A stretch of DNA of 64,000 nucleotides, taken from the IMG/VR virus record IMGVR_UViG_3300009509_000001, positions 64,001 to 128,000 of that record. One strand, 5' to 3'. Below, in pieces: positions 19,106 through 40,740 of this stretch (its first letter is position 1; the number at the start of each line of letters is the position of its first letter). Origin of the DNA: a virus. The translations under genes were made by a program, and so were the position numbers. The notes under the pieces were generated by a model. That model searched no databases, had not been told where the DNA came from, and worked only from the letters and a program-made list of their open reading frames with translations.

Positions 19106-19792
19106 TTAGGGTCTAAGGCGCCCTTCAACGCCGCGCTTCTCGCGGTCGCTCGTGCGCTTGTTCATCCACATGAGCGCCTCTTCCAGACGCATGATGGCCT
19201 GCTCGTTCTCCTTGCAGGCGTACTTGCCGGCCTGGAACGCCTGCATGCGGTCGATGATTATGGCGATCAGCGGCTCGTGCTGCAGACCGTTGACGCCGTT
19301 GTGCTTGACGGGGCCTTCCTGGAAGTGGATGCTCATCAGGCTGCGGCCGTGGTCCGTGTCGTCGTTGCTGAACACCTCGTACTGGTGGCACGCTCCGCCG
19401 GGACCCGGCCGGTCCATGCTGCAGACCTCAAGGGCCTTGTCGCTGTAGATCACCCGCACGTGCTCGGGCACGTCCACGATCTTCGGCGCTTCGGCCTTCG
19501 GCTTGTAGACCGGGGGCGTGAACGTGATCTCGTGGGCCGGATCGCCGTCGACGAATATGGTGAACGTCGTGTGGTCGATGTGCTGGGCCTTCTGCAGCGT
19601 ATGGTTGTCGAACACGTAGCCCAGGATGTGCGCGTAGTGCGGCGAATCCTGCAGCATGTCGTGGAACTCGTCGGGAACCCGGATGAACACCACCCGGTCC
19701 TGCCCGCGGTACTGCCGGAGCGCACGGCGCAGCGGGGTCGTGTCCACGCGCTCCAGGTAAAGCTCGTTCGGTGTCGGTATGTAGTCTGCCAT
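19106..19792 (-). CDS. tad1: Tad1-like immune-signal sponge with ~110-aa N-terminal extension
   Basis: GPGGACHQY, IHFQEGP, DRMQAFQAG, ENEQAI..LEEALMWMNKR..DR..R.V.G match the conserved blocks of Clostridium Tad1 as recalled. Confidence 0.85.
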   Translation of the reverse strand: MADYIPTPNELYLERVDTTPLRRALRQYRGQDRVVFIRVPDEFHDMLQDSPHYAHILGYVFDNHTLQKAQHIDHTTFTIFVDGDPAHEITFTPPVYKPKAEAPKIVDVPEHVRVIYSDKALEVCSMDRPGPGGACHQYEVFSNDDTDHGRSLMSIHFQEGPVKHNGVNGLQHEPLIAIIIDRMQAFQAGKYACKENEQAIMRLEEALMWMNKRTSDREKRGVEGRLRP

Positions 19793-24201: not shown

Positions 24202-24836
24202 CAGGGCGTTGTTGCCGGGGTTGGGCTGATGGCGTCGTTCATCATGTCGAGAACGCGGGCCAATCCTTCAGGCATGCCGCTGTCCGACGCACTGACCGTG
24301 ACGTCGTACTTGGCGCTGTTGTCGCTCTTGCGCGTGTGCGCCGAGTGCGACGAGGTCTTGCCATGCACCTTGACCGTGGCCTTGAACGGACCCCAGCCGA
24401 CACTGGCGCTGCCTTCGAAGCCGGCTTCGCTGTCGCTGGCCTCGGTGTCCTCGGTACTGGAGTTGACGCTCATGGTGAAGGCGATGTCCACCTTGTCGAC
24501 CTTGAGGGACGGCATGGGGATGATGGCCAGCAGCGGTACGTCGATCTCCACGTTCTTCGGGGTGATCTTGGAAACCGTCTTGGTCTTGTCGGCCGGGTCC
24601 TCCACCTGTTCAAGGATGTTCTGCATGTAGCCGAACTTCACCATGTTGGCGACCTTGATCGTCTTGGTCTTGTCGGCCGGGTCCTCCACTTCCTGGAATC
24701 CGGTCTTCAGAATGAAATCCGCGTTCGCACTGATCATCTGCGCGTTCGCCTTGGCTGCGGCCTGCAAAGGGCCGCCGATCAGGGAATCCATCGGCAGGTT
24801 GCCGAATTGTTTACCCATGTCTACGAGTCCAGGCAT
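24201..24836 (-). CDS. DUF2589-family protein (long type)
   Basis: LPMDSLIGGPL.AA..A, IDVPLLAIIP.PSLKVD.VDI.F.M.V, SAKYDV.V.A....PEGL; GGAGG RBS. Confidence 0.88.
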   Translation of the reverse strand: MPGLVDMGKQFGNLPMDSLIGGPLQAAAKANAQMISANADFILKTGFQEVEDPADKTKTIKVANMVKFGYMQNILEQVEDPADKTKTVSKITPKNVEIDVPLLAIIPMPSLKVDKVDIAFTMSVNSSTEDTEASDSEAGFEGSASVGWGPFKATVKVHGKTSSHSAHTRKSDNSAKYDVTVSASDSGMPEGLARVLDMMNDAISPTPATTP

Positions 24837-24885
24837 CTGGTACCTCCGTTTGTTTGTTCTTGTTGCCCTTTGTGTTAATGAAAAT

Positions 24886-24995
24886 GGTAGCCCCGGTTTC
24901 CTGATCGCGCTGTCAACGAGCCCCTTCCGGCTGAGGCTTTAACGGCTCCCACGCGATCAGTGCCGGCTGCCCGGCAAGGCACAAGGGCACTACCT
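24886..24995 (-). ncRNA. Structured RNA element (motif copy B)
   Basis: Nested helices GGTAG/CTACC, GTGCC/GGCAC, CTGATCGCG/CGCGATCAG, GAGCC/GGCTC and a CC-GGAA-GG tetraloop. Confidence 0.55.
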
Positions 24996-24997
24996 GA

Positions 24998-25149
24998 TGG
25001 CCAGGAAGGCGGGACTTGAACCCGCATAAGGATGCATCCACACCGACGGTCGGAACGCGAACGCGCTGACTACGCGCTCCAACCAAGCTACCCGGCCGAG
25101 CCGGGTCACTGCCAGTTGTGTCGGTGGCCTACCGTTCGGCCACTCCCTG
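24998..25149 (-). ncRNA. tRNA-like RNA (152 nt) with a 72-nt insert replacing the anticodon loop
   Basis: Acceptor CAGGGAG/CTTCCTG + G-CCA; D arm GCC/GGC; helix CACCGAC/GTCGGTG; variable arm GGAT/ATCC; T arm GCGGG-TTCAAGT-CCCGC. Confidence 0.8.
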
Positions 25150-25238
25150 GAATGCCTCTGACCCATACGCCGGTCTAAGGCGGTAGCGACGTCCGTAGAG
25201 CCCGTGCGCTCCTTGGCTACTTCTGTAAGGCACGGTGT

Positions 25239-25336
25239 TGGTGAAGAGTGACGGATTTGAACCGCCTTCAAGTGCGTCCTGCCCAACGGCCGAAGCCGTG
25301 CTCCGCTCTTGCTTTACCGACATAAGATAACCCTTC
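25239..25336 (-). ncRNA. tRNA-like RNA (98 nt) with expanded anticodon arm
   Basis: Acceptor GAAGGGT/ACTCTTC + A-CCA; T arm GGCGG-TTCAAAT-CCGTC; CAAG.GCG/CGC.CTTG helix enclosing an ACGGC-TTCG-GCCGT hairpin. Confidence 0.75.
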
Positions 25337-25411
25337 AATAAATGCCGACCCCTTACCACCATCATGTGTCAGGTAGTGCGCGGGTCGGCGCAATCAATGG
25401 AGGCAAGGTAC

Positions 25412-25663
25412 TCAAGTGAACCCGGAAGGGTACTGCTGCCATTTTATCGGCGGCCCCGAAAACAGGGCCATACCCTCCTCCAAACAGCCCGCTATGTCCA
25501 CCTCCAGGACGGGGGCCTGAGTTCCACAGGCGATGAGCAGACATGGCACGTCGGCGCTACCGAAGTCGCAGTGCGCCGGGTGGTTGTGGCCGCCCCTGCA
25601 TAGGACGTGATGCTTCACTGGCTGTACGGTGATCAAACCCGCCGCGAGCAAAGTCATCAACAT
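25412..25663 (-). CDS. Small Cys/His-rich protein with hydrophobic N-terminus
   Basis: AGGAGG RBS before ATG; MLMTLLAAGLITV. Confidence 0.4.
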   Translation of the reverse strand: MLMTLLAAGLITVQPVKHHVLCRGGHNHPAHCDFGSADVPCLLIACGTQAPVLEVDIAGCLEEGMALFSGPPIKWQQYPSGFT

Positions 25664-25825
25664 GGCTGCACCTCCTGTGTTGAAATCTAAAGGGCACTTC
25701 CCTCCCTCCCCTTCGTGAGCCACGTTCGCTCCGTCCAGTTCGGGAGGTGCCGGCGACCCGGCAAGGCAAGAACCCGCCTGCGGGAGCGCGGCGGCGATGC
25801 GCCGTCAATCACGCTCCATGCTTTA

Positions 25826-25854
25826 TCTATAACGGGAGTTTGCCGCTAAGTCAA
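25826..25854 (-). promoter_or_regulatory. Sigma70-like promoter driving the RNA locus
   Basis: TTGACT-N17-TATAGA. Confidence 0.6.
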
Positions 25855-25871
25855 GGCAACTTGGAAATTAC

Positions 25872-25900
25872 TCAGTGGATAATCAGTGGATAATCAGTGG
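25872..25900. repeat. 11-bp tandem repeat, about 2.6 copies
   Basis: TCAGTGGATAA x2 + TCAGTGG. Confidence 0.85.
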
Positions 25901-39242: not shown

Positions 39243-40517
39243 CTACTTCTTAGTGGCGTCGTACTTGTGCTGGGCCACGATGGCCTTGCGGGCACCAGGG
39301 CTCACGCGGCCTTTGAAGTTGACGTTCGGGTACTTCTTCTTGGCGGCCTTCAGGCCCATGTTCTCGGCCTTGGTCTCAGCCTGCTCGACCTTCAGGTTCT
39401 TGCGGCCGGCCGCGGCGTCCGTCTGTTCACCGACGGCGACTGCGGCCTGCTTCGTGAGCAGGGCTGCCACCAGGTCGTTGACGACTTCATGCTTGACGCT
39501 TGCGGCCTTGCTGAGGTCTGCCCGCTCGTTGGCACGGGGCCTGGCCGGCGGGAACGTGCTCGGTGTCAATGACGGGGCGCCCAGTCCCGGCTTGGGCGGA
39601 TACTTCTTGCGGATCATCTCGTAAATCTTGCGCTTTTTGCTCTCCGGGCTTTCCTGCACGGCGCTTGGCTGAGTGGCGCCCGGCATTCCCAGCGGGGCGA
39701 TGGGCTTGGGCATCGTCTGTACGCCGGCGGCGACTCCGCCTGCGTTGCCGCCCTGCCGCACGGATTCTAAAATGCCTTTGCCGATTCTGCTGAGATTTCC
39801 GGATCTGGCAGTTTTACGGATAAGTGCTTCAGTTAACAGTCCCATTGGTGTGTCTCCTTGTTGTTCTGCGGTCTTCGGCAGCTGGCGGCCTTCGCTCATC
39901 TGCTGTGCAAGTATCTTCCAGTCTTCGGGCGTCATGGTTTCGCGCCGTGCCATCCAGCGGCCGAGGGCGCTGCCCATACCGGTACCGAGTGCGGCACCGC
40001 CCAGTCCACCGGCCACTCCGCCGATTGCGGCGGCGGTACCCTTGGCGTCGTCACTGGCCTTGTTGAACAGGGCGAGCATGATCGCCGCACCCATGCCGGC
40101 GCCGGTGGCTCCGCCGACCAGACCGCCGCTTGCGCCGCCCAGTCCCTGGAGTGCAGCGGACTCGAGCCGGCTGCTGCCACGGGCGGGTCGGGCCAAACCA
40201 TGAGCGGCACCACCCACGAACGGGATGGTCTGGATCAAATCTGTCTTGTCGTCGAAGGCGGCGGCTTTCATGATCACCGGGCCACCCTTCTCGTTGGCGG
40301 CGTCAAGCGCTGCCTGAGCCTGGGACTTCAGCTTCTCGGCCTCAAGTTCCTTGGAATGCGTGTCGACGTACCACTGGGCAGTGCGCCGCACATGCTCCGG
40401 CGTATTCGGATCGTCGAGTACGGCCTGGGCCTTTTCGATCTCGGCGGCCTTGTCGACCTTGAACATATCCATGAGTCCGGCAGTCTTGCGGACGAGGGCA
40501 TTTGCGAGTAGCGGCAT
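39243..40517 (-). CDS. Putative virion protein; in-frame tandem of two KTA-leader units (second ATG at 39845)
   Basis: MPLLANALVRKTAG and internal AAGGAG-RBS MGLLTEALIRKTAR. Confidence 0.75.
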   Translation of the reverse strand: MPLLANALVRKTAGLMDMFKVDKAAEIEKAQAVLDDPNTPEHVRRTAQWYVDTHSKELEAEKLKSQAQAALDAANEKGGPVIMKAAAFDDKTDLIQTIPFVGGAAHGLARPARGSSRLESAALQGLGGASGGLVGGATGAGMGAAIMLALFNKASDDAKGTAAAIGGVAGGLGGAALGTGMGSALGRWMARRETMTPEDWKILAQQMSEGRQLPKTAEQQGDTPMGLLTEALIRKTARSGNLSRIGKGILESVRQGGNAGGVAAGVQTMPKPIAPLGMPGATQPSAVQESPESKKRKIYEMIRKKYPPKPGLGAPSLTPSTFPPARPRANERADLSKAASVKHEVVNDLVAALLTKQAAVAVGEQTDAAAGRKNLKVEQAETKAENMGLKAAKKKYPNVNFKGRVSPGARKAIVAQHKYDATKK

Positions 40518-40740
40518 ATCTGGATCTCCTGTATGATTCGGTGTTAGTCGCTTCCTGTTAATATACTCCACCGGTTTCGCGCACGCAAGCAACGACCCCG
40601 GTCTGCGGATGGCACGGCACACGCCTCGTCGGGCAGGCCCCCTTACGGGGCCTCGATGGTTTGCATGCGCTTACACGTTGTCCGTGTGCAATCCGTTGCC
40701 CCGGAGGGGCACCTGTTCGTTCCGGAAAATGTCCTGGATT

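Follow-up and report, generated by a model that had tools for sequence, protein, structure and literature searches.

A 98-nt tRNA-framed element without an anticodon loop in the accessory region of a complete phage genome

The window analyzed here is a stretch of 64,000 nucleotides and comprises bases 64001-128000 of a virus record that is complete, 194,576 bp in length, ~60% G+C and bounded by direct terminal repeats. On its minus strand lies a 98-nt element, hereafter RNA2, which has the frame of a tRNA but no anticodon loop. It is found between an orphan 83-aa gene and a second tRNA-framed element, RNA1, located 89 nt further downstream on the same strand (Table 1). Genes identified in the vicinity encode a portal-like protein, glycosyltransferase-methyltransferase fusions, two DUF2589 proteins and, 5.4 kb downstream of RNA2 in the same gene array, a homolog of Tad1 (Thoeris anti-defence 1). 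In this 228-aa protein the C-terminal ~100 residues account for the match, while the N-terminal ~120 residues are extra, and its presence in the array fits an accessory region of counter-defence type. ARAGORN reported zero tRNA and zero tmRNA genes in the window, and the Rfam tRNA model (RF00005) gave nothing above the cut-off genome-wide. Canonical tRNA genes are absent from the genome, and RNA2 and RNA1 are thus not stragglers of a decoding set.

Table 1. Features of the RNA2 locus, with positions given in window coordinates
Feature	Position	Strand	Basis and remarks
Sigma-70-like promoter candidate	25826..25854	-	-35 hexamer, 17-nt spacer, -10 hexamer; read directly
Block absent from L044, 540 nt	25150..25689	-	BLAST of window against L044: flanks ~97% identical, 2 nt instead of block
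Orphan 83-aa gene	25412..25663	-	AGGAGG 7 nt before ATG; GC3 0.75, gene-like
Inverted repeat, upstream arm	25369..25379	-	perfect, 11 bp; brackets RNA2 and RNA1
RNA2, tRNA-framed element without anticodon loop, 98 nt	25239..25336	-	read directly; strict frame scan
RNA2 acceptor stem, 5' strand (RNA positions 1-7)	25330..25336	-	7/7 pairs with 25243-25249, one G-U
RNA2 U8	25329	-	directly after acceptor 5' strand
RNA2 D region	25311..25327	-	3-bp stem and U-C mismatch; 9-nt loop with A14, G18, G19, A21
RNA2 rod in place of anticodon arm, 43 nt	25269..25311	-	minimum-energy and centroid folds
RNA2 rod closing stem, 8 positions, one A-A mismatch	25311-25304 with 25276-25269	-	encloses 27-nt stretch
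RNA2 terminal hairpin, 5 bp, C(UUCG)G tetraloop	25286..25299	-	C-G closed; UUCG = 25291-25294
RNA2 T arm	25250..25266	-	5-bp stem, one G-U; canonical 7-nt loop (T54, psi55, C56, A58 letters)
RNA2 acceptor stem 3' strand / A73 / encoded CCA	25243-25249 / 25242 / 25239-25241	-	read directly
RNA1, tRNA-framed, 152 nt, 72-nt insert for anticodon loop	24998..25149	-	L044:2013-2164, L007:67-226
Inverted repeat, downstream arm	24987..24997	-	directly after CCA of RNA1
Tad1 homolog	19106-19792	-	E = 9e-23 against solved Tad1 structures

An earlier note, written from the letters of the sequence, had described an acceptor stem, an A-CCA end, a T arm, a D-loop GG and an insert in this stretch. All of these were recovered on the minus strand, and the UUCG hairpin that the note placed at the anticodon position was likewise found, the tetraloop hairpin (25299-25286) lying inside the 27-nt stretch. 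The acceptor stem, the T stem and the terminal hairpin contain no mismatches, with pair probabilities of 0.74-1.0 for the acceptor, ~0.95 for the T stem and 0.84-0.91 for the hairpin and the closing stem. Within the rod, a purine-rich 2-by-4 internal loop, in which tandem G-A pairs could form, is followed by a 2-bp helix, a 3-nt bulge and the terminal hairpin. The sole hairpin loop of this central domain is the 4-nt UUCG, and no 7-nt anticodon loop can be drawn. A mismatch-free hairpin with a C(UUCG)G cap is what would be expected of a structured RNA. The canonical D-stem pairs receive little weight in the energy model, the minimum-energy fold having a different D hairpin, and only 2-3 nt are left at the position of the variable loop. 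Due to this weak D stem and the short variable region, an L-shape is not assured. The folding energy of RNA2 as a whole is not unusual (z = -1.17; 25/200 shuffles fold as well). The base preceding G1 (position -1) is a U.

The stretch is not coding. A 78-aa frame overlapping RNA2 has a GC3 of 0.58, as compared with 0.65-0.90 in real genes nearby, and in independent assemblies of the same phage no gene is called between the 83-aa gene and DUF2589. When this frame was compared exhaustively with 1.8 billion representative proteins, a single match to a repeat protein was obtained, which was rejected, as the short motif coincides with the translated T arm.

To estimate how often such a frame arises by chance, the genome was scanned with a strict tRNA-frame pattern that needs a T-loop motif, a 5-bp T stem, a 7-bp acceptor stem, U8 and N73-CCA. 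Exactly two sites were found in the 194,576 bp, RNA2 and RNA1 (24998-25149), both on the same strand, whereas 200 dinucleotide-shuffled genomes gave 0 sites. RNA2 is thus a real element that descends from a tRNA. At genome positions 40355-40532 the frame is matched a third time, with CCA missing; this site lies inside a 405-aa reading frame and was dismissed as a chance match. RNA2 is not called by ARAGORN, nor when introns are allowed, a setting under which RNA1 is called, and it has no Rfam match at gathering thresholds. Compared with a tRNA feature by feature, it has the acceptor stem, the discriminator, the CCA, the T arm and G18/G19, with a D stem of 3 pairs only, and it fails on the 5-bp anticodon stem with a 7-nt loop, on U33 and on the anticodon. 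RNA2 clearly descends from a tRNA and cannot decode.

The best Rfam match of RNA2 is to tRNA-Sec (RF01852); it scores 24.3 bits (E = 0.035 in a 1.1-kb search), where the threshold is 47. tRNA-Sec is characterized by an 8/5 acceptor/T geometry, a 6-bp D stem and a long variable arm. The sub-threshold match covers the acceptor and the T arm only, and the assignment was rejected. The same applies to tmRNA, as the tmRNA mode of ARAGORN finds none and the 3-70 position is A-U. RNA2 was also not placed in a conserved class of the type represented by RNA1, since it has no homolog and is absent from the near-identical contig L044 described below; RNA1 itself qualifies.

Homologs of RNA2 were searched for in several collections. 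Using blastn, positions 24900-25420 gave no match among 50,697 phage records. Neither the exact 28-nt 3' string nor a gapped pattern combining the D loop and the T loop was found in IMG/VR, and exact matches to the 22-nt string spanning the T arm and the acceptor are lacking from 185,579 prokaryote species, each represented by one genome. The gapped pattern gave 20 matches among 241 million metagenome records, all unrelated to RNA2, being either ordinary tRNAs preceded by a chance D-loop string or intron-bearing tRNAs, some of them in tRNA tandem arrays. As RNA2 is without homologs in the searched collections, there is no covariation to count. Routes through the neighboring genes were also followed. 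The DUF2589 neighbor has 777 homologs, and in the more distant relatives (DUF2589 identity 59-83%) there is no room for the RNAs upstream. The GT8-methyltransferase neighbor has no relative in IMG/VR, and the portal protein led to short fragments only, on which the RNAs are not located. The environmental sequences also contained a family of tRNA genes (on contigs L014, L021, L023, L025 and L026) with a canonical frame and an anticodon loop of 27-28 nt, for which ARAGORN reports a four-base anticodon; they probably encode tRNA-Thr(GGU), position 37 being followed by 20-21 inserted nt.

The earlier note had further proposed that two RNAs of the same design occur here. This holds, since in RNA1, 89 nt from RNA2, the anticodon loop is also replaced by structured RNA. 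RNA1 is kept in three phages, the present one and those represented by contigs L044 and L007, and in each of them it lies within the 5' leader of the DUF2589 operon. Across these phages its insert measures 72-80 nt and is composed of multiple hairpins with a conserved single-stranded motif, in addition to a variable-arm hairpin. In L007, six of the seven acceptor pairs differ, and all seven still pair. The alignment fold accounts for four pairs changed on both sides and one on one side; the seventh pair, which this fold puts in the D stem, was read by eye. Compensatory changes are also found in the anticodon-like stem, the variable hairpin and the T stem, and RNAalifold reports 11 pairs with double changes in total. 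In L044, C-G has replaced a U-A pair of the 12-bp insert hairpin. L007 has A instead of G as the discriminator. Nearly identical sequence is retained in the D arm, in the 18 nt with which the insert begins and in an 11-nt motif that follows its first hairpin. With introns allowed, ARAGORN calls RNA1 as tRNA-Gly with a 69-nt intron. The conserved 18-nt insert motif is not present elsewhere in IMG/VR, and a gapped search combining the RNA1 motif and the T loop in the species genomes gave 10 chance matches upstream of ordinary tRNAs. RNA1 and RNA2 have no sequence in common beyond generic T-arm letters, which rules out recent paralogy. The lineage does maintain anticodon-less tRNA frames, and RNA2 has that design; RNA1 is the conserved member, the stronger lead and a better representative of the class than RNA2.

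Comparison with the two related contigs shows how the locus changes. L044 is a 3-kb Logan contig carrying a 96% identical copy of the 102-aa gene upstream of the locus, followed by the promoter-like site and leader (97.8% identical), 2 nt, RNA1 (96.8% identical) and DUF2589. The 2 nt take the place of a 540-nt block that in the window contains a ribosome-binding site, the orphan 83-aa gene, a long hairpin, RNA2 and the 89-nt spacer. RNA2 is thus dispensable for this phage, which is ~97% identical on either side of the block, and it is an accessory element. The 83-aa product, which shares the block with RNA2, has a hydrophobic N-terminus, six cysteines and five histidines, and no homolog except itself was found among 5.8 billion proteins. 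A second window-specific segment of 102 nt, following RNA1, is likewise absent from L044.

L007 is a 1.3-kb contig with a DUF2589 protein 91% identical to that of the window. It begins inside a near-canonical tRNA(CAU), of which the 3' two-thirds are preserved (L007:1-58) with one A-C mismatch in the anticodon stem, located 7 nt upstream of a diverged RNA1. This arrangement fits descent from an ordinary tRNA gene. After RNA1, at L007:228-395, a third tRNA-framed element was identified. Its acceptor stem has 7 bp and its insert measures ~110 nt, and it also has a D-like hairpin and a T-like arm of non-canonical form. Together with RNA1, this element indicates that the lineage uses anticodon-less tRNA frames repeatedly. 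The leader and RNA1 of the window are ~97% identical to L044 and ~70% to L007, whereas the start of DUF2589 is 90% identical to L007 and 79% to L044. The locus is therefore a recombination mosaic, and in the comparison of positions 24700-25900 with both contigs the identity switches at the 3' end of RNA1. High turnover at the locus and the nearby Tad1 homolog fit an accessory region of counter-defence type.

The promoter candidate, which is identical in L044, would by its sequence drive the whole series from the leader through the 83-aa gene, RNA2 and RNA1 to the DUF2589 operon; the consensus promoter scan did not report it because its -10 hexamer is without the final T. The same type of scan detected no promoter or terminator belonging to RNA2 itself. 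Directly upstream of RNA2, a long hairpin is followed by a U-rich run, which could stop transcription before RNA2. The 11-bp inverted repeat bracketing both RNAs is real, yet not compelling as evidence of design, as such a repeat occurs somewhere in 8.9% of shuffles of the 851-nt region.

Two further observations concern the surroundings of RNA1. A 22-nt hairpin motif occurs at 24960-24981 and 25747-25768 (minus strand) and at no other site in the 194.6-kb genome; the copies are identical at 20/22 positions, and both differences fall in the 4-nt loop. One copy lies in the operon leader, where it is also present in L044, and the other in the window-specific segment after RNA1, adjoining a copy of the last 9 nt of the leader. 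Based on these two repeated stretches, the segment 24893-24994 looks like a rearranged partial duplicate of the leader. In addition, two independent Logan assemblies of the same phage are both interrupted in the DUF2589 gene, 25-59 codons after its start, which suggests a repeat or population variation at that spot.

The claim of the earlier note that RNA2 reflects selection rather than decay was not borne out, as RNA2 has no homologs, the 540-nt block is missing in L044 and L007 carries a tRNA(CAU) at the locus. By analogy with RNA1, and from the intactness of RNA2 itself (mismatch-free stems and an extra-stable tetraloop), a case for selection may be made, resting on these and not on covariation. 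None of the observations points specifically to protection against anticodon nucleases, an idea raised in that note. The main alternative, which is quite possible, is a disabled tRNA gene, namely one that lost its anticodon loop by rearrangement or palindromic insertion and persists as a neutral remnant beside the orphan 83-aa gene. The absence of RNA2 from the nearly identical L044 is in line with this, as are its sub-canonical D arm and variable region and its lack of both homologs and a folding-energy signal. The tRNA(CAU) located 7 nt before RNA1 in L007 indicates that ordinary tRNA genes visit this position, and if the event was recent the encoded CCA and the intact stems would simply have been inherited. 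However, not a single mismatch has accumulated in the acceptor stem, the T stem or the terminal hairpin, and the former loop is unrecognizable, having given way to a continuous rod with an extra-stable tetraloop rather than to a simple insertion. Two more anticodon-less tRNA frames are present in the lineage, one of them under clear structural constraint, and dead DNA is seldom kept for long in a dense phage genome. We consider it unlikely that RNA2 is purely a processing signal, whose frame would recruit RNase P and 3' processing and separate the 83-aa message from the RNA1/DUF2589 message, the released RNA having no role of its own. Its location between an ORF and the next units of one same-strand array, the U at position -1, the inverted repeat that brackets both RNAs like a processing stem and the fact that all three phages have RNA1 in the DUF2589 operon's 5' leader would agree with such a function. 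A minihelix would be sufficient for RNase P, though, leaving no need for the elaborate capped rod or the D-loop letters; the significance of the inverted repeat is weak, and the same operon exists in L044 without RNA2.

An explanation that would return RNA2 to the decoding tRNAs is that the 27-nt insert is an intron whose removal restores the anticodon loop. Metagenomes do hold intron-bearing tRNAs with the same D-loop letters, and ARAGORN reads RNA1 as a tRNA-Gly when introns are allowed, but under that setting RNA2 is still not called, neither side of the insert has a residual U33 or purine-37 context, and group I introns are far longer than the insert. Searches for RtcB, an Rnl2-type ligase and a CCA-adding enzyme found none of them in the phage, and splicing is therefore highly improbable; a search for Rnl1 gave no signal anywhere and carries no weight as an absence. 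It is hardly credible that RNA2 is an attachment site, serving integration into a host tRNA gene through a copy of its 3' part. Copied tRNA 3' ends are common at phage attachment sites, but RNA2 has both acceptor strands and not the 3' part alone, and its 22-nt string of T arm and acceptor has no exact match in the 185,579 species genomes. The genome has direct terminal repeats, and no integrase was found among the neighboring genes scanned.

The reading we favor, with a probability of roughly 45%, is that RNA2 is an accessory, non-decoding tRNA-framed RNA that is cut out by the tRNA-processing enzymes of the host. It would be co-transcribed with the orphan 83-aa gene from the operon promoter at ~25850 and then excised by host tRNA-maturation enzymes, RNase P presumably cleaving before G1, which is preceded by U, and the 3' side being trimmed back as far as the encoded CCA. 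What RNase P and 3' trimming require is present in RNA2, namely the intact minihelix, the elbow letters, the U at -1 and the encoded CCA. The product would be a stable RNA of ~98 nt, behaving in the manner of engineered tRNA scaffolds. As the 'cargo' of RNA2 is only a stiff capped rod, the active part may be the tRNA body itself, i.e. the acceptor/T-arm minihelix, the elbow letters of the D loop and T loop, A73 and CCA. RNA2 could then act as a shape mimic that occupies proteins recognizing the elbow and the acceptor end of tRNA and not the anticodon, or alternatively as a processing and stability module for its transcript. Either way it is not a core gene but belongs to a cluster of tRNA-framed RNAs that changes fast, its gain or loss being recent. 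A more speculative extension, to which we assign a low probability, is that the lineage keeps a fast-changing arsenal of natural 'tRNA scaffolds', of which RNA2 would be the minimal form, a pure tRNA-body decoy that does not itself enter translation and soaks up a host immune effector or toxin docking on the elbow or acceptor end.

Phage tRNA genes are usually taken to assist codon usage or to replace tRNAs that host defences have cut. If the favored reading is true, an RNA with all that processing and shape recognition of a tRNA demand, but unable to decode, would indicate that this virus puts the tRNA fold to a different use; it could serve as a decoy or competitor, or as a stable RNA module that processes itself. 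RNA2 is of value mostly because this recombination-prone locus contains three or four elements of the kind. In the literature, we found no description of phage anticodon-less tRNA mimics or decoys.

Among known systems, RNA2 shares with canonical phage tRNA genes the acceptor stem, the T arm, the elbow letters, the CCA and the clustering with tRNA-type genes, but it has no 7-nt anticodon loop, lies below every detector threshold and is non-decoding. With the tRNA-like domain of tmRNA it shares an acceptor/T-arm minihelix ending in CCA and the replacement of the anticodon arm by other RNA. tmRNA, however, is distinguished by its G3-U70 alanine identity, its pseudoknots and its tag reading frame, whereas RNA2 has A3-U70 and a length of 98 nt. 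YrlA, a bacterial Y-RNA-like molecule, is a non-decoding mimic of the tRNA elbow and acceptor arm, in which both ends of the chain are located in the Ro-binding stem, on the anticodon side, while a loop closes the acceptor-like stem. Compared by description, RNA2 differs in having ordinary tRNA topology with free acceptor ends and CCA, and no Y-RNA match was obtained for it in Rfam. RNAs C and D of phage T4 are small stable RNAs located among tRNA genes and matured with them, their role being unassigned; RNA2 is likened to these by description only, and we do not claim membership. The same architecture is found in the engineered tRNA scaffolds of Ponchon and Dardel, chimeras that are recognized by cellular factors of E. 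coli and accumulate as stable RNAs (PMC3753655). As described for naturally stable RNAs such as tRNAs, this recognition brings precise processing and protection from degradation (PMC3753655). The acceptor stem, T arm and D arm are kept in these scaffolds and a hairpin replaces the anticodon stem-loop, as in RNA2, but they are laboratory constructs carrying a cargo RNA, whereas RNA2 is natural, has only a capped rod as its cargo and is merely predicted to be processed and stable. tRNA-like phage RNAs and tRNA mimics are known kinds; a natural tRNA frame in which a capped rod stands in for the anticodon arm is a new variant.
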